Assembly: GCA_052246995.1 (NCBI GenBank)
Contig: JBQPWD010000004.1
Coordinates: forward strand, 32,001-96,000
DNA length: 64,000 bases
Origin: Candidatus Bathyarchaeota archaeon
GTDB lineage: Archaea > Thermoproteota > Bathyarchaeia > Hecatellales > Hecatellaceae
Direction: 5' to 3'
This document shows positions 1 through 31,211 of the stretch, in pieces. Each line of letters opens with the position of its first letter. Position 1 is the first letter of the stretch. A program made the position numbers and the translations under genes. Under the pieces are notes generated by a model. It did not search any database, was not told the origin of the DNA, and saw only the letters and a list, made by a program, of their open reading frames with translations.

Positions 1-140
1 TCAAAGCATTCTCCTCTACCGTGAGCAATAAGTCCAGCTAACGCCACAAGACCCTTCTCAAATCCCTCTACAAGTTTTTCACGGATTCTTAAGGATTCAG
101 CTCTTGGATGATTTTCAGGTATATGAAATTTATTGCTCAA
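1..140 (-). CDS. Phosphopantothenate synthetase (archaeal PPS), 5' part; runs off the window edge
   Basis: Manual translation from TTG at 140 gives [46 protein letters not shown]. IPxxHPR and GLIAHGRGE match the archaeal PPS N-terminus. Overlaps the pantoate kinase stop. Confidence 0.85.
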
Positions 141-1041
141 TTATCCTCGCCCCTATCAAATCAACATCTGAAGTGATAATTTCACCACCAACCTTTCTAA
201 ACAAGTTAACATAGGGAAAAACATCCTCAAGTTTATCCTCCTTTATAAGTGTAAATAGTGCTTCACCAAACATGTTCATTGAAAATCTCTGTCCGTTATA
301 CCTATCCAAAATATCTAGTACATTTCTTAGCCTTTGAGTGTAAATGTTAACTTCATCAGCAAACATTCTAGAAGCTTTTATGAAAGTTTCAACTGATGGT
401 TTTGCTAGGAAATGTTTCAAAGCTTTTCTTCCAGCCAGATTTATTCTTAACCTAACTTCACGATTTTTCAAGAAGGTCTTTGTTGGTAAAGCTGAGAAAT
501 ATAAAGAAACAACCTTAAAGCTTGACCAGTTAAACTTCCTTATGGAGCCTACCCCTGGAGCACCAGCTTTATCTCTAACCTCAAATCCGCCGAAAGTTTC
601 ACCTATAACAGTCCCAAGACCAGTTTTACATTTGATTTCAGCTAAATGTGCAAGTTGTGCTGCTTCGACTTTAGATAATCCTAAATTTAACGCCTCATTT
701 AAGGCTAGTGACAATCCTAGAACTCCGGCTCCGCTTGTACCGTAACCAGCTCCTACTGGTAGATCGGTTTTATGTATAACTTTAATGTTGTAAGGTTTTT
801 CTACAAGTTTTGAAAGCTCATTTATCAGTGTTAGAGACACGTCAGCTTTGGTTGGAGAACTATTTATGCTTATGCTTACAATCCACCTATGACTTTTCTC
901 CACCTCAACCTCGGTGTACACACCTTTGGTTAGCGAAAAACCTCCGCCAAGAGAACCTTTCCTTAGCAAATTTTTATATTTATCATTTATAATAAAAAAA
1001 CCTGTTATATGAGCTGGTGCGAAGGCTTTAACTTTTTTCAA
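130..1041 (-). CDS. Pantoate kinase (GHMP kinase family)
   Basis: [29 protein letters not shown] motif and AHLAE..TGLGTV; adjacent to PPS. Confidence 0.9.
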
Positions 1042-25566: not shown

Positions 25567-26214
25567 TTGAGTAAAAAAGGAATCGTCGTACTGGCAGGTG
25601 GTAGAGGAGTTAGACTTAAAAGAAAACTTCCAAAGCCGCTTATAAAACTTCATGGAAAAACTCTTATTGAGCATGTTTTAGAAAAAGTTCAAAAAGTTTC
25701 AAAAAACGTAGTTATTGTTATTAGTAAGGAGGAGGATGAAAAAGCTTTTAGAGACATTGTTTCAGACCGTATACCAATACTTGTTGACGTGGTTAAGAAT
25801 GTTGGGCCTCTATCTGGAATGTTAACAGGTATGCAGAAAATTGAGGCAAATTACGTGTTAACTGTTCCATCAGACACTCCATTTATTAACCCTGAAATCT
25901 TAAAATACCTTTTTAAGAAAGCCAAGAGCCCGGTAGACGCTGTTGTCCCAATTTGGCCTAACAATTTTAAGGAGCCTCTTCAAGCGGTATACAAAAGGAA
26001 TTCAACAGTCAAGGTGTTAGAGGAAAATATTAAAGATGGAGAATTCTCAGTTTTAAGCTTAACGAGAAAATTAAAGAATGTCTTATACATTTCCGTCGAG
26101 GAACTTAAGGTTTTTGATCCTAAATTAATCACGTTTTTTAACATAAACACAGATAGAGACTTACTGCTGGCTAGAAAACTCGTTAGACTATACTCATCTA
26201 GGGTGGAAAAATAG
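25567..26214 (+). CDS. mobA: Molybdenum cofactor guanylyltransferase
   Basis: VLAGG, GPLSG, DTPF, EPLQAVY, FFNINT. Confidence 0.88.
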   Translation: MSKKGIVVLAGGRGVRLKRKLPKPLIKLHGKTLIEHVLEKVQKVSKNVVIVISKEEDEKAFRDIVSDRIPILVDVVKNVGPLSGMLTGMQKIEANYVLTVPSDTPFINPEILKYLFKKAKSPVDAVVPIWPNNFKEPLQAVYKRNSTVKVLEENIKDGEFSVLSLTRKLKNVLYISVEELKVFDPKLITFFNINTDRDLLLARKLVRLYSSRVEK

Positions 26215-26254: not shown

Positions 26255-27103
26255 ATGGGTAAACCATCTAAGCTTTTATACATTAAAGAAAAGCACATAG
26301 TAACTATAATAATTAACAGACCTGAAGTTTTAAACTGTATTGACCCTGAAACAGATGCTCTTCTAGCTGACGCTTGGATTAAATTTAGAGAGGATGAAAA
26401 TGCTTATGTAGCAATAATAACTGGAGCTGGAGAAAAATCGTTTTGTACAGGAGCAGACTTAAAAAGCTGGCCTGAATATCTAAAAAGCCGTAATGTGAAT
26501 TTTTTAAGAAAACGGGCATACTATGGTCCTGGTTTTGGAGGCATAACTAGGGGTATTGAAGTTTTTAAACCTATAATTGCAGCTATTAATGGCATGTGCT
26601 ACGCTGGAGGCTTGGAAATTGCTCTTGCAACAGATATAAGATTGGCTGCAGAACATGCAAAATTTGGTGTTTTAAACAGAAGATGGAATGTGGGGTTAGG
26701 GGATGGTGGAACACAAAGACTTCCAAGAGTTATTGGGTTAGGTAGAGCTCTAGAACTCATTCTTACTGGAAAAGAGATTGACGCTTATGAGGCTTATAGG
26801 ATAGGTCTAGTAAACGAGGTTGTACCCAAGGATAAACTTATGAGTAGAGCTAAAGAAATTGCAAAAACTATATGTAAATATCCTCAAGGCTCTATAAGAA
26901 CAGATAAAGAGGCAGTAATTAGAGGAGTGGGTAAAGATTTAGAAGAAGGTTTGAGAATAGAAAACATGCTTTTCAACACACTACTTTTAACTCACGACTT
27001 TTATGAAGGCCCAAAAGCGTTTGCAGAAAAACGTAAACCAAAGTACACAAATGAGAAAGAAAAAATAGGAGGGTTAATTTCACACCATCTTCATGAAAGA
27101 TGA
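26255..27103 (+). CDS. Enoyl-CoA hydratase/isomerase (crotonase family)
   Basis: FCTGADL, KPIIAAING, GGLE, GGTQRLPR. Confidence 0.92.
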   Translation: MGKPSKLLYIKEKHIVTIIINRPEVLNCIDPETDALLADAWIKFREDENAYVAIITGAGEKSFCTGADLKSWPEYLKSRNVNFLRKRAYYGPGFGGITRGIEVFKPIIAAINGMCYAGGLEIALATDIRLAAEHAKFGVLNRRWNVGLGDGGTQRLPRVIGLGRALELILTGKEIDAYEAYRIGLVNEVVPKDKLMSRAKEIAKTICKYPQGSIRTDKEAVIRGVGKDLEEGLRIENMLFNTLLLTHDFYEGPKAFAEKRKPKYTNEKEKIGGLISHHLHER

Positions 27104-27382: not shown

Positions 27383-29854
27383 GTGAGGTTAAGGAAGGTT
27401 AAGATGGAGTTTTACGGTTACATCGGAAAGATTGCAAGAATAAACCTTACAACAGGAAGTATTAAAGCTGAAACGTTAAACCCCAAAATAGCTTACAATT
27501 TCCTTGGTGGAAGGGGTTACGCGGCAAAGATTCTTTATGATGAGCTTAAACCGAACATTCCTCCACTAAGTGAGGAAAACAAGCTAATCTTCATGACTGG
27601 TCCACTAACAGGAACAGACTTTCCAGGGTCAGGTAGAATTTCCATAAGCACAAAGTCCCCTTTAACAGGGACAATTTTTGACTCTTCCATGGGAGGGTCT
27701 TTTGGAACATATCTTAAAAGGTCAGGATATGACGGAATCATTCTTGAGGGTGCAGCTAAAAACCCTACATACATTCTCGTTGACAACGAAAAAGTGTTTA
27801 TAGAAGATGCATCTAGCTTACAAGGTGCATCCACCTTCACCACCGAAGAAAAGTTAAGAAGCCAGCATGGAGTTTGCGGAGTTGCTTGTATTGGTCCTGC
27901 TGGTGAAAACCTTGTTTACCTTGCAAATATAATGTCTGAGGGACGTACAGCTGGTAGGGGTGGTTTAGGTGCTGTTATGGGTTCTAAAAACCTTAAAGCT
28001 ATAGTTGTTAAGGGTGAGAAAAAAGTAAAAATTTTTGATGAAAAAGCATACCGTGTTCTTTTAAAAAAGATTAGGTTCATAATCGAGAATGATCCATTCA
28101 CAGGTTTTGATGGAACTCTTTCAAAGTTTGGTACAGCAGGAATTGTTCATAGGATTAGAAGTGCAGGAATTCTGCCTGTGGAAGATTTTTCAGGTAAAAT
28201 GCTAAGCTTTGAGGAGGCTGACAAGTTTTCCGGTGAAAGTATTAGAGAGAAGTTTTATTTTGGTAGAAAGGGATGTTACTTATGTCCCACTGCCTGTGGA
28301 AGAAGAGTTAAAGTTGAGAATATCATCGTTAAAGGTCCAGAGTATGAATCAATAGTTATGCTTGGACCAAACTCTGGGTTTTATGATTATGAAGAAATAA
28401 CTAAGCTTGCTTTAGAGTGTGATAAGCTTGGTTTGGATACTATTTCTACTGGAAATATTCTGGGTTATGCCAGACAGATTGGCATTATTTCAACATTTAA
28501 AGATGCGTTAAAGTTAATTGAGGAGATAGCCTATCATAGGTCGGTATTCGCTAAAGGTTTAAAAAATGCGGCAAAAATTTTCGGTAGAGATGCTGCTGAG
28601 GTTAAAGGGCTAGAAATTCCAGCATACGATCCTAGAGGAGCTTTAGGTATAGCTTTAGCTTATGCAACATCAAACAGAGGAGGATGTCATCTTAGGGCGT
28701 ACACCATTGCACCTGAAATTTTAAGCAATCCTGTTTACGTTGACCCAGCCACCGAGGTAGGTAAAGCGGAAATTGTGAAGAGAATGCAAGATGTTTTTGC
28801 TGTTTATGATAGTAGCATTATATGTAAGTACCATGGCTTATCCTTGTTTACTAGCCTAAAGTTTGAAGTTGAAGATTTGGCAAGAATTTTAACAAGCTTG
28901 ACAGGATTTAGATTTACAAATAACATTCTCCATGAGATTGGAGGAAGAATTTACAATGTAGAGAGACTTTTTAACTCTAGAGAAGGGTTTACTGTTGAGG
29001 ATGATAAACTACCTAGAAGGTTTAACTTAGACCTAAGCAAACTTTTAGTAGAATATTATAATGTAAGAGGATGGATTGAAGGTAAGCCTCAGCTTCCACC
29101 AAGCTTGCGTGAGGTTGAATATTCCGGAAGAGGAGAGTTAGCAATTACTTCTCTTATGAAACTTAAACCTCCACAGATTCAAGTTGCATTAGACATGGAT
29201 GCCGAGTTGGATACCATCGTAAAAGTTGCACAACAATCCTATATTGGTGGTGCAAGAATAATCGAGGCTGGAACGCCTGCAATTAAAAGACATGGAGTTG
29301 AAAAACTTATACCTGCCTTAAGAGAGGTGGCACCTGAAGCTTTAATAGTTGCTGACATGAAGATAGCTGATGCAGGTAAACTAGAGGCTAGAATAGCTTT
29401 AAGGGCAGGAGCAGATATTGTTGCCGTTTTAGGGATTGGTGGAGTTGAGAAGATTAAAGAAGCTTTAGGAGAAGCTATTAGGAATGATTGTGCAATTTTG
29501 ATAGACTTAATAGACTGTGAAGACCCTATTAAAAGGGCTGAAGAGCTTATTAAAGTTTTAAAAGGAAAAGAGGATTGGGTTATCTTCTGTCTTCATCGAG
29601 GAATAAGTGAACAAATGAGAAGTAGAGGAATTTACGATCAGAAAAGCTTAATCTCAGAGTTTAGAAAGAAGATCAATGGTTTTACAATGGCTATAGCCGG
29701 AGGTATAAGGGAGGGGACAGCTGGGGAGATAGCCTCCTGTGGTGTTGAAATTATAATTGTTGGAAGTGCAATTTATAACTCGGTAAATCCTGTAGAAACA
29801 ACAAAACGTTTCCTAGATGAAGTTAGAAAGATGTATAAAAAAGTCAGCTCCTGA
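27383..29854 (+). CDS. Aldehyde:ferredoxin oxidoreductase fused to a C-terminal 3-hexulose-6-phosphate synthase-like (HPS/KGPDC) domain; start probably ATG at 27404
   Basis: AOR motifs GRGGLGAVMGSKNLKAI, CYLCPTAC, GPEYES, GLDTIS, YDPR, RGGCH. Then from about 29165 QVALD, IIEAGTP, ADMKIADAG, GAD, H-x-G, AGGI, VGSAI. Confidence 0.9.
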   Translation: MRLRKVKMEFYGYIGKIARINLTTGSIKAETLNPKIAYNFLGGRGYAAKILYDELKPNIPPLSEENKLIFMTGPLTGTDFPGSGRISISTKSPLTGTIFDSSMGGSFGTYLKRSGYDGIILEGAAKNPTYILVDNEKVFIEDASSLQGASTFTTEEKLRSQHGVCGVACIGPAGENLVYLANIMSEGRTAGRGGLGAVMGSKNLKAIVVKGEKKVKIFDEKAYRVLLKKIRFIIENDPFTGFDGTLSKFGTAGIVHRIRSAGILPVEDFSGKMLSFEEADKFSGESIREKFYFGRKGCYLCPTACGRRVKVENIIVKGPEYESIVMLGPNSGFYDYEEITKLALECDKLGLDTISTGNILGYARQIGIISTFKDALKLIEEIAYHRSVFAKGLKNAAKIFGRDAAEVKGLEIPAYDPRGALGIALAYATSNRGGCHLRAYTIAPEILSNPVYVDPATEVGKAEIVKRMQDVFAVYDSSIICKYHGLSLFTSLKFEVEDLARILTSLTGFRFTNNILHEIGGRIYNVERLFNSREGFTVEDDKLPRRFNLDLSKLLVEYYNVRGWIEGKPQLPPSLREVEYSGRGELAITSLMKLKPPQIQVALDMDAELDTIVKVAQQSYIGGARIIEAGTPAIKRHGVEKLIPALREVAPEALIVADMKIADAGKLEARIALRAGADIVAVLGIGGVEKIKEALGEAIRNDCAILIDLIDCEDPIKRAEELIKVLKGKEDWVIFCLHRGISEQMRSRGIYDQKSLISEFRKKINGFTMAIAGGIREGTAGEIASCGVEIIIVGSAIYNSVNPVETTKRFLDEVRKMYKKVSS

Positions 29855-30482: not shown

Positions 30483-31211
30483 ATGGTTAAAATAAGTTTA
30501 AAAGAAATTCCTAAAGTTCTTCTGGGCACCTCACCTTTTATTGGTGCAGGTCAGTTTGGTTTAAAAGCCTTAGAGTATTATAAAAACTTTTATCTTAATC
30601 CTTCAAACATTAAAAAAATTGTTAGAAAAAGTTTTGAAGTTGGAGTTAATGGTATTCAGCTTTTACCATTTAAACCAGTTATTGACGCTGTTGATGGGCT
30701 TTTAAAGGAAGGATTAAAGTTTAAAATTGTTAGTACTGTTACATTTGAAAGTTTTAAAAAGAATTTATTAGAAGAGGTTAAAAAGTTAAATCCAGTAGCT
30801 ATTTTACTGCATGCTGAGGTTGCAGATAGATGTAATGAAAACCTTTTTAAGAACTTACTTAGAGAAATTCAATTTAAAGGATATTTAACTGGTTTTGCAA
30901 CTCATCAACCATTAAAAACCTTAAGCTGGATTAAAAATACAAACCTAGAGTACGATATAGTAATGACACCACTAAACATTACTGGAGAATTCATAGATGG
31001 AAAACTTGAAGATTTAATTAAAATTTTAAAAGAGTTAGACAGGTTTGTAATTGCAAAAAAAGTTTTAGCCGCTGGAAAATTAAAACCAAAAGATGCGTTA
31101 GAGTATATTGCTAGGCTTAATTGTGTAAACGCTGTAGCTTTGGGAGTAACATCAGAAAGAGAAATTGAAGAAACTCTGGTATTGGCTAAGAAGATTCTTG
31201 ACAAAATCTAA
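30483..31211 (+). CDS. Hypothetical TIM-barrel protein, aldo/keto-reductase-like
   Basis: LGTSPFIG, ATHQP, PLN..G, IAKKVLAAG, ALGVTS..EIEE. Confidence 0.55.
   Translation: MVKISLKEIPKVLLGTSPFIGAGQFGLKALEYYKNFYLNPSNIKKIVRKSFEVGVNGIQLLPFKPVIDAVDGLLKEGLKFKIVSTVTFESFKKNLLEEVKKLNPVAILLHAEVADRCNENLFKNLLREIQFKGYLTGFATHQPLKTLSWIKNTNLEYDIVMTPLNITGEFIDGKLEDLIKILKELDRFVIAKKVLAAGKLKPKDALEYIARLNCVNAVALGVTSEREIEETLVLAKKILDKI

Follow-up and report, generated by a model that had tools for sequence, protein, structure and literature searches.

In most archaea, pentoses come from the RuMP pathway run in reverse, each pentose made setting free one formaldehyde, and methanogens use the fused protein Fae-HPS for this formaldehyde. 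To our knowledge, its fate in other archaea is an open point, and the natural substrates of the tungsten AOR enzymes are mostly unknown. Fae-HPS (NCBIfam PRK13307) joins a barrel of the HPS (3-hexulose-6-phosphate synthase) type to a module that captures the formaldehyde of reverse RuMP, and the fusion described here, AOR-HPS, would share this design. The two are alternatives to each other both in the archaeal class we surveyed and in the family that the window comes from (the window being the whole stretch of 64,000 nucleotides analysed). In AOR-HPS, however, the partner is a redox enzyme of about 580 residues with pterin and 4Fe-4S motifs, placed N-terminal to the barrel; the barrel belongs to a divergent subclade; and the protein would oxidise formaldehyde to formate rather than condense it with H4MPT.

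Each module also has solved relatives. For the barrel, the best is the HPS-PHI fusion of Thermococcales (9lj9; NCBIfam RuMP_HxlAB), at 2.8e-29, 32% identity and rmsd 2.0. Its partner is the next enzyme of the pathway and not a formaldehyde sink, whereas PHI is a separate gene in our source genome, and it has Asp where the AOR-HPS family has Ser735. HPS-PHI serves the same reverse-RuMP pentose route, a role cited in PMC7143981.

The closest solved relatives of residues 1-563 are P. furiosus AOR (1aor) and the tungsten AORs 9mqx, 9g7j and 8c0z (3.9e-119, about 40% identity, TMt 0.88). The cluster, pterin and catalytic residues of these enzymes are all conserved in the fused module, which is about 25 residues shorter, with several loop deletions. 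They are free-standing or pair with distinct electron-transfer subunits, and none has a C-terminal barrel; in a Foldseek search, no PDB chain covered both modules (best TMq 0.66).

The fusion gene and its two modules

The gene, from a hot-spring archaeon, is one uninterrupted reading frame of 816 residues and a stop (Table 1). The frame is open from position 27383, and the start codon, ATG at 27404, agrees with the N-terminus in the consensus of homologues. The initial annotation, made from the letters alone, had read it as a full AOR followed by a linker and an HPS-like barrel. The Pfam scan bears this out: AFOR_N, AFOR_C and OMPdecase/HUMPS occur in that order, and all three greatly exceed their cut-offs. 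Every barrel motif it had listed was located in the translation, as was the linker: QVALD (residues 593-597), IIEAGTP (619-625), ADMKIADAG (650-658), IDLI (700-703), LHRGISEQ (730-737), AGGI (765-768) and VGSAIY (786-791). The key residues of the barrel are D597, E621, D651-x-K653-x-x-D656, D701, H731 and A765-G-G. The linker is flanked by W557, G560 and P590, which are invariant in fused homologues. In an AlphaFold2 model of the whole protein, the two-module chain has a pLDDT of 94 and a pTM of 0.92, with a mean pLDDT of about 90 over the linker region (residues 561-590); the only low-confidence loop is residues 735-738 (pLDDT below 50), which includes Ser735.

Table 1. Features of the AOR-HPS fusion gene, in window coordinates
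Feature	Coordinates	Strand	Evidence
Whole CDS, AOR-HPS-like fusion protein P0001	27404..29854	+	ORF list, translation, Pfam and NCBIfam scans
AFOR_N, residues 8-204	27425..28015	+	Pfam PF02730, E 9e-81; aligns with 1aor from residue 2
AFOR_C domains 2 and 3, residues 220-563	28061..29092	+	Pfam PF01314, E 8e-90
Linker KPQLPPSLREVEYSGRGEL, residues 561-579	29084..29140	+	Between the AOR and barrel envelopes (Pfam)
HPS-family (OMPDC-suprafamily) beta/alpha barrel, residues 590-803	29171..29812	+	Pfam PF00215 (OMPdecase/HUMPS), 84 bits, E 1.4e-23
H-R-G-I-S-E-Q family signature, residues 731-737	29594..29614	+	Barrel alignment

The source assembly is of metagenome type, with 17 contigs. That an assembly chimera or a frameshift artefact merged two adjacent genes is nevertheless next to inconceivable. 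The same architecture, at about 800-835 residues, was present in 69 of the 70 clusters retrieved with the C-terminal part from NCBI, ENA, JGI and Logan, as well as at 7 loci in genomes and over 20 in metagenomes, and it is spread, by the source labels, over several archaeal phyla. Contigs from public runs of two studies cross residues 550-600 with neither indel nor joint, and GC content across the junction stays at 0.34-0.41 without a break. The junction check and the search for the same architecture elsewhere, both proposed in the initial annotation, therefore exclude a chimera and a peculiarity of this genome: the AOR-HPS fusion is real and widespread. We found no published description of it in the literature, and that annotation knew of none either, though such a gene could appear uncommented in the supplementary tables of MAG papers. 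X8, the one clear RNA run, reaches just 57 bases at an end of the stretch; X1 and X2 carry a metatranscriptomic label but were flagged as probably DNA.

The N-terminal module belongs to the AOR family, with Pfam scores of 270.8 bits for AFOR_N (cut-off 29.8) and 302.2 bits for AFOR_C (cut-off 27). A CxxCxxxC motif at residues 291-298 (C291, C294 and C298) and the distal C474 do not vary among 70 fused homologues, and from the roles of their counterparts in P. furiosus AOR we take these cysteines to be the 4Fe-4S ligands. The distal one is gapped in the HMMER alignment, but its DSxxxC motif nonetheless corresponds to DSAGLC of 1aor. E313 and E315 (PEYES), H429 (GGCH), D345 (GLDTIS) and D469 are likewise invariant in the 70 homologues and align with 1aor; by the same roles, the glutamates and H429 presumably form the active site and the two aspartates the pterin motifs. 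The module looks catalytically intact, and the invariance of its catalytic and cofactor residues in 70 full-length fusions argues for selection on AOR catalysis. The initial annotation had invoked the AOR/FOR family as a whole, of which the AOR part stands and the FOR branch does not. Although P. furiosus FOR (1b25) would be the first candidate to come to mind for oxidising formaldehyde, shares family and fold with the module (5.2e-83, TMt 0.85) and is the fifth-ranked Foldseek match of the fusion, it scores 283 bits, as against 402 for 1aor. The source genome encodes four further AOR paralogues.

The barrel belongs with HPS rather than with UlaD. It scores 134-142 bits against the HPS models of NCBIfam and 53-65 bits against the UlaD models; the UlaD equivalogs PRK13305 and PRK13306 give 52.8 and 65.2 bits, where their cut-offs are 294 and 250. 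Its PDB sequence matches are HPS structures at 2.8e-29 (9lj9) and 1.2e-24 (3ajx) and KGPDC at about 1e-11; in Foldseek its TMt values are 0.87-0.89. The Mg/enediolate set (D597, E621, D651, K653, D656 and H731) is invariant in 70 fusions and aligns with 9lj9 and 3ajx. The KGPDC enzymes UlaD and SgbH share the OMPDC-suprafamily barrel and its Mg and D-x-K-x-x-D residues (TMt 0.87-0.88), but at the three positions by which HPS is told from KGPDC our barrel is of the HPS kind: D701, I734 and A765. We map these onto KGPDC E112, R139 and T169 through an alignment to HPS chains, the E112D/R139V/T169A mutant being named in PDB titles. In trees built with FastTree (221 rows) and IQ-TREE (78 rows), the barrels form a distinct clade among HPS-like sequences (support 100 and 99), and E. 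coli UlaD lies elsewhere in both. A UlaD/KGPDC identity is thus ruled out by profile scores, PDB matches and both trees, which settles the tree comparison proposed at the outset in favour of HPS.

The barrel is nonetheless not a canonical HPS. Its 134.4 bits against TIGR03128 (RuMP_HxlA) lie below the equivalog cut-off of 200, and in Pfam OMPdecase it reaches 84 bits where the other HPS of the source genome reaches 126. The H-x-G-x-D motif reads H-R-G-I-S, with Ser735 replacing the canonical Asp. The initial annotation had remarked on this reading, which proves to be a family-wide trait and not a private mutation: of 74 AOR-fused barrels, 67 have S at position 735, 5 have T and 2 have D, and all 4 degenerate forms have T there, while D occupies it in 135 of 143 other HPS-like barrels. 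A second conserved change in the AOR-linked clade turns IK-S-E-G into IK-R-H-G, and the stem of the clade is long, at 0.71 changes per site in the FastTree tree. Given the long stem and these conserved changes, the specificity of the barrel may have shifted from that of canonical HPS.

Distribution, genome content and neighbouring genes

The source genome is 100% complete. It carries PHI as a separate gene (194.5 bits, cut-off 160), and searches of it gave no match to Fae or to Transketolase_N. It also encodes methenyl-H4MPT cyclohydrolase (Mch), which rules out an organism devoid of H4MPT; other enzymes of the H4MPT pathway and molybdopterin enzymes are possible producers of formate. The genome check suggested in the initial annotation, namely phi present and no separate hps or fae, thus comes out in part, since PHI is present and Fae absent but a separate canonical hps exists. 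The same annotation had envisaged a route without H4MPT, which Mch leaves unforced; uptake of formaldehyde by H4MPT could proceed non-enzymatically.

In related genomes, AOR-HPS and Fae-HPS stand in for one another. Among 201 genomes of the same class, Fae was found in 2 of the 18 with a full-length AOR-HPS and in 118 of the 183 others, counts in which kinship between the genomes overstates their independence. Within the window's own family, three genera carry a type-1 fusion (g1, g3 and g4) and one a type-2 fusion (g6), and in these genera Fae is absent; all three genera lacking AOR-HPS (g2, g5 and g7) have Fae-HPS instead. Across these kin genomes, the module joined to the barrel is interchangeable with Fae, and this replacement backs the connection between AOR and formaldehyde drawn in the initial annotation.

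The type-2 fusions have barrels 52-57% identical to canonical HPS and are the only HPS-like match in 12 of the 14 genomes that carry them. Four type-2 barrels fall among canonical HPS in the FastTree tree, but uniting all AOR-linked barrels in a single clade is compatible with the AU test (p-AU 0.72), and the tree constrained in this way beats the quick free tree by 20.7 lnL units; from these trees and from that of the AOR domain we claim neither one fusion event nor two. In a Hadarchaeia MAG, a type-1 fusion is the only OMPdecase-family match, with a tandem PHI-like gene directly after it. The source locus has no conserved neighbours: its genes for a MobA-like transferase, a crotonase and a methylpurine glycosylase have no counterpart at loci L011-L017. 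No CoA genes lie near the 13 type-2 loci.

Several lineages keep the barrel, often beside panB, after deletion, separation or decay of the AOR part. AOR-less barrels of 233-237 residues occur at no fewer than 8 loci; 2 loci have in-frame deletions in the AOR part, 3 have split genes, and one clade retains a shrunken AOR relic with no pterin motifs. Because the barrel was kept in these lineages, the coupling of AOR and barrel is not obligatory, and the AOR module is accessory rather than core.

The only other HPS of the source genome is a canonical one fused to RraA, in a protein of 434 residues. HPS-RraA lies within a PoK-PPS-HPS~RraA-KPR-CoaBC operon in 5 of the 5 related genomes fetched, and since it is thus embedded in a CoA operon, AOR-HPS remains as the candidate for the housekeeping role. 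These operons contain no PanB, and HPS-RraA occupies its place. PanB, too, handles a C1 unit at the level of formaldehyde, and many genomes of the class have neither PanB nor an obvious C1 donor; our literature search found no published link between HPS or RraA and ketopantoate. The barrel gene of the fusion itself adjoins panB in 17 of 38 type-1 loci.

Proposed function and alternative readings

We consider it roughly an even bet that AOR-HPS is a reverse-RuMP HPS with an AOR module that oxidises the released formaldehyde in cis. The product would be a bifunctional enzyme whose barrel is the working 3-hexulose-6-phosphate synthase of the cell. The separate PHI would turn fructose-6-P into hexulose-6-P, and the barrel, with the RuMP pathway running backwards, would cleave this into ribulose-5-P (Ru5P) and formaldehyde, supplying pentoses to a genome free of transketolase. 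The AOR module, a tungsto- or molybdopterin enzyme that brings its own 4Fe-4S cluster, would oxidise the formaldehyde to formate and pass the electrons to ferredoxin, as the counterpart of Fae in Fae-HPS, so that the toxic formaldehyde is probably turned into formate on the spot. The split of formaldehyde between fixation and oxidation that the initial annotation also raised would be a hypothetical variant. What the enzyme acts on, which way it runs and whether it channels are our inferences from the following evidence: the whole catalytic sets, the HPS kinship of the barrel, the presence of PHI and the absence of Fae and transketolase; the mutual replacement with Fae-HPS, the type-2 fusion often being the sole HPS, and the PHI-like neighbour in Hadarchaeia; and also the adjacency of panB and the high pTM. 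Against in-cis oxidation we counted the HPS score below cut-off, the long stem, the kinship with AOR and not FOR, and Mch, as well as the loss of AOR in several lineages and the want of a conserved neighbour at the source locus.

Some of these same points would suit a barrel of changed specificity, an aldolase or lyase that acts on another phosphorylated keto-sugar and releases an aldehyde other than formaldehyde (glycolaldehyde, for example, or a larger one) for oxidation by the AOR-type module. The score below the equivalog cut-off and the long stem would fit, as would the family-specific substitutions beside the catalytic His and within the loop that follows the Mg-binding Glu, the nearness of the AOR part to broad-spectrum AORs, and the canonical HPS kept in the source genome. 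We think this unlikely, however, as all three specificity positions are of the HPS kind, and as the type-2 barrels, 52-57% identical to canonical HPS, fill the corresponding position in sister genera, often as the sole HPS; in addition, the AU test allows one clade for all AOR-linked barrels, and the Hadarchaeia fusion, the only HPS-family gene found there, adjoins a PHI-like gene. A looser relation, in which the fusion arose by historical accident and survives for the sake of co-expression or as a scaffold while the AOR module serves unrelated aldehydes or lies idle, would account for the dispensable AOR body, with its AOR-less loci, in-frame deletions, split genes and relic clade, and for the four other AOR paralogues. 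It appears very unlikely to us when the invariant AOR residues, the retention of the architecture across several phyla (by source labels) and a distribution complementary to that of Fae, unexpected for an accident, are set against it.

The opposite direction is a quite doubtful prospect. AOR-family enzymes are reversible, and the AOR module could reduce formate to formaldehyde with low-potential ferredoxin while the barrel traps the formaldehyde on Ru5P as hexulose-6-P, which would mean formate assimilation or a safe formaldehyde-level C1 store for pantoate synthesis. A fusion would keep free formaldehyde very low, as this uphill reduction requires; the adjacency of panB, the many genomes of the class with neither PanB nor an obvious C1 donor, and the possible formate producers of the source genome also agree with it. 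A route from formate through formaldehyde to RuMP has been proposed for Desulfurococcus, with no enzyme assigned to it (PMC7143981). In a genome lacking transketolase, however, net Ru5P must come from hexoses, which requires the cleavage direction, and no regeneration of Ru5P for a fixing cycle was found there. Exchange with Fae, which consumes formaldehyde, suits its removal more than its production. Finally, the lineages without AOR retain the barrel beside panB, so that the C1 supply of PanB is independent of AOR. Rather improbable, too, is a wider scheme in which AOR-HPS interconverts formate and sugar-bound formaldehyde with ferredoxin (formate, reduced ferredoxin and Ru5P in equilibrium with hexulose-6-P) and, together with HPS-RraA and the panB-linked barrels, makes up an archaeal C1 economy independent of folate and H4MPT, with hexulose-6-P as the carrier.

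Implications for archaeal formaldehyde metabolism

Were that C1 economy true, the hexulose-6-P route would extend to the hydroxymethyl donor, or the enzyme, that has long been missing for ketopantoate in archaea that lack PanB. The position of HPS-RraA in PanB's place likewise bears on the missing ketopantoate-forming step of many archaea. If AOR-HPS is reversible, it would be a natural route from formate through formaldehyde to sugar, like those that synthetic biologists attempt. In the reading that we prefer, oxidation of reverse-RuMP formaldehyde in cis, the fusion would add a physiological role for the tungsten AOR enzymes, and a conserved and widespread AOR-HPS, distributed as an alternative to Fae-HPS, would give a concrete and testable answer to what becomes of this formaldehyde.

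The AOR-HPS gene, its relatives and its residues

The AOR-HPS product has 816 residues from the ATG at 27404, a start with which the N-terminus of homologues agrees. The domain scan proposed in the initial annotation returned AFOR_N, AFOR_C and OMPdecase/HUMPS, each well above its Pfam cut-off (see table), and all of the barrel and linker motifs listed there were found, at residues 561-791. There is no GC step at the junction of AOR and barrel, and the junction is spanned without indels or joints by public contigs of two studies, both labelled hot-spring metagenomes. One of these contigs is near-identical to the window and may be its source assembly; the spanning relatives from the second study are 90-95% alike. 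The spanning contigs, the smooth GC and the same architecture in homologues effectively exclude an assembly artefact.

Positions of the AOR-HPS gene, its domains and the related loci
Feature	Position	Strand	Remark
AOR-HPS ORF	window 27383/27404..29854	+	single open frame, table 11
AFOR_N	residues 8-204		Pfam, E 9e-81
AFOR_C	residues 220-563		Pfam, E 8e-90
OMPdecase/HUMPS	residues 590-803		Pfam, E 1.4e-23
MobA-like nucleotidyltransferase	window 25567-26214	+	just 5' of AOR-HPS
Enoyl-CoA hydratase	window 26255-27103	+	just 5' of AOR-HPS
242-aa ORF	window 30483-31211	+	downstream of AOR-HPS
CoA operon	window 130-969 and upstream; L130 9758-14970 (G000:C4:27757-32969)	- (window part)	
panB-paired loci	L103 5024-7458		also L099-L116, L013, L117, L120, L121, L125
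Protein with two PHI-like SIS domains	L011 3235-4431	+	399 aa, directly downstream of type-1 fusion
In-frame deletions	L120 4619-5452; L121 2343-3167		AOR body shortened by ~546 residues
Apparent split genes	L123 4234-5919 and 5923-6735		
AOR then two HPS-like domains	L017 425-3421		one protein

By ORF size, the two upstream neighbours recur in locus L144, from the same genus, and in L092; they are absent from more distant loci. The downstream ORF has no Pfam or NCBIfam match.

The architecture was also sought elsewhere, and it is not unique to the window's genome. Residues 560-816 were searched against 5.8 billion clustered proteins, limited to those of similar total length; 70 proteins were returned, 68 of them with AFOR_N, AFOR_C and OMPdecase; one is truncated at the N-terminus (AFOR_C and OMPdecase) and one is RraA with OMPdecase. 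Source labels, where given, are Bathyarchaeota/Bathyarchaeia, Hadarchaeota, Hodarchaeales, Thaumarchaeota and Verstraetearchaeota/Methanomethylicia, the closest clusters being labelled Bathyarchaeota. Databases name the homologues 'hypothetical protein', 'aldehyde ferredoxin oxidoreductase' or 'orotidine 5'-phosphate decarboxylase'. The initial annotation knew of no described fusion of this kind, and we found none in full-text searches of the literature. MAG papers on Asgard, Bathyarchaeia and related groups treat AOR separately from Fae-HPS or HPS-PHI (PMC11291895).

Tungsten AORs, P. furiosus AOR among them (1aor, 3.9e-119), are the closest relatives of the AOR module, with FOR (1b25) ranking clearly below; Foldseek agrees with this kinship (TMt 0.88). 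In an alignment of 70 fusions, C291, C294, C298 and C474, which we take to be the cluster cysteines, are invariant, as are E313/E315, H429, D345 and D469; residue roles are presumed to carry over from the P. furiosus enzyme. Barrel residues D597, E621, D651, K653, D656, D701, H731 and A765 are likewise invariant. Judged from sequence, both modules look functional. An AlphaFold2 model built on the same alignment reached pLDDT 94 and pTM 0.92.

Two fusion types and their distribution

With the barrel as query, HMMER run exhaustively over 1.84 billion representatives found 1260 matches at E <=1e-3 and 14 at <=1e-30. FastTree (221 rows) places the window's barrel in type 1, a clade with support 100 and a stem of 0.71 that comprises 70 AOR fusions, four proteins of 600-666 aa and two short proteins; IQ-TREE (78 rows) recovers it with 26 rows and support 99. 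E. coli UlaD, against which the initial annotation wanted the C-domain placed, falls elsewhere in both trees. The barrels of type 2, a second set of AOR-HPS fusions, are 52-57% identical to canonical HPS, and FastTree puts them amid canonical archaeal HPS. An AU test did not reject one clade for all AOR-linked barrels (p 0.72), and in the AOR-domain tree both types and a few stand-alone AORs share one side of a well-supported branch; we therefore claim neither one nor two fusion events.

Several queries were run against one set of 201 genomes from the window's class. The type-1 fusion occurs in 4, all within the window's family, and a full-length type-2 fusion in 14, in 12 of which it is the sole HPS-like match; in 2 more genomes it is truncated at contig ends. 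Fae was found in 120 genomes: 118 of the 183 without a full-length AOR-HPS and 2 of the 18 carriers, there with weaker matches (1e-38 to 1e-44), a contrast to be read as a pattern, not as a test in the statistical sense, because the genomes are kin. Within the family, the second HPS gene is a type-1 fusion in genera g1, g3 and g4, a type-2 fusion in g6, and Fae-HPS in g2, g5 and g7; that is, sister genera fill the same slot with either Fae or AOR. No second HPS gene was found in the incomplete genomes G052, G069 and G074 (g4, g6).

Outside the class, the type-1 fusion is the sole OMPDC-family match of a Hadarchaeia MAG. The 399-aa protein encoded directly after it, at L011, has RuMP_HxlB as its top family match, at 122 bits where the cut-off is 160. 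Other arrangements exist: L017 and P0126 encode proteins (992-998 aa) with AOR followed by two HPS-like domains, from MAGs labelled Nanohaloarchaeota or Aenigmarchaeota, and protein P0124 (968 aa) has three tandem HPS-like barrels and then a SIS (PHI-like) domain.

Genome content and the CoA operon

The window's genome, rated 100% complete, carries a stand-alone PHI (194.5 bits, above cut-off), methenyl-H4MPT cyclohydrolase (Mch), five AOR genes altogether and two molybdopterin oxidoreductases. Searches for Fae, Transketolase_N, FTHFS and PanB found none of them in this genome. The expectation of a genome with phi and with no separate hps or fae thus held for PHI and Fae and failed for HPS: beyond pyrF, one other OMPDC-family gene accompanies the fusion, the 434-aa HPS-RraA, which was found in 12 of the family's 14 members.

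HPS-RraA lies in an operon just upstream of the window, ordered PoK-PPS-HPS~RraA-KPR-CoaBC (pantoate kinase-like GHMP kinase, PPS, HPS-RraA, ketopantoate reductase, CoaBC), an order seen in all five related genomes fetched. There it occupies the place expected for the ketopantoate-forming enzyme; PanB is absent from 14 of the 15 surveyed genomes with full-length HPS-RraA, and was found in none of the 14 family members. HPS-RraA is thereby a candidate substitute for PanB, in which HPS would free formaldehyde for the RraA-like class II aldolase to attach to ketoisovalerate. We found no full-text paper tying HPS or RraA to ketopantoate. The organism's canonical HPS appears dedicated to CoA synthesis, so that the AOR fusion is the candidate for a general HPS.

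Candidate roles of the barrel and its AOR partner

Among 38 type-1 loci (3 genomic, 35 metagenomic), 17 have panB (PF02548, 398 bits) directly upstream of the barrel gene in divergent orientation, 8 of them with a fused and 9 with an AOR-less barrel, and 15 have a gene for the archaeal phosphopantothenate synthetase downstream. These neighbours hold with or without the AOR fusion, and the panB pairing is seen in two distinct wider contexts; two further conserved neighbours of the paired loci (231 and 228 aa) match no Pfam family. PanB puts a formaldehyde-level C1 unit on ketoisovalerate, so the pairing is independent context evidence that the barrel handles formaldehyde-level carbon.

The simplest account, to which we give an even chance, is a reverse-RuMP HPS: the barrel would run RuMP backwards and release formaldehyde, and the AOR module would oxidise it in cis. 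Substrates, direction and channelling are all what we infer here. The barrel scores 134-142 bits with HPS models versus 53-65 bits with UlaD models, under the HPS equivalog cut-off of 200 bits, and its PDB sequence matches keep that order (9lj9 2.8e-29, 3ajx 1.2e-24, KGPDC ~1e-11). Its single clear departure is H-R-G-I-S where HPS has H-x-G-x-D, as the initial annotation had read it, suspecting altered specificity. Across 221 barrels, the last position is Asp in 135 of 143 non-fused barrels; in 74 AOR-fused barrels it is Ser (67), Thr (5) or Asp (2), and in degenerate forms Thr (4/4). This loop, residues 735-738, is the sole disordered stretch of the structure model. A shift in sugar or aldehyde specificity strikes us as unlikely, and operation in the reverse, formate-fixing direction as a little more doubtful again.

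An AOR uncoupled from the barrel we consider improbable, the least favoured of these readings.

AOR (562 aa) and type-1 barrel (271 aa) are adjacent genes, an apparent split, in three metagenome loci (L122-L124). At least 8 metagenome loci carry an AOR-less barrel gene of 233-237 aa with all motifs intact, in synteny common with loci bearing the 815-823-aa fusion. At L120 and L121, residues 1-30 are joined to 577-821 of the full fusion of L117 (78% identical); changes there in some conserved barrel residues (GSAIYNS to GRSICNS) may point to decay. Proteins P0120-P0123 (600-666 aa) align full-length with the fusion (profile-profile; probability 100%, E 5e-78), and what is left of the AOR in their N-terminal ~380 residues is a shrunken relic, with CxxCxxxC retained and the pterin regions gone. 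The relic is fused to a well-conserved barrel reading HRGITEQ.

In evolution, then, the AOR part has proved dispensable, unlike the barrel. We class AOR-HPS with the HPS enzymes fused to a formaldehyde-handling partner; on the account favoured above, AOR would be an accessory sink, replaced or lost in some lineages.
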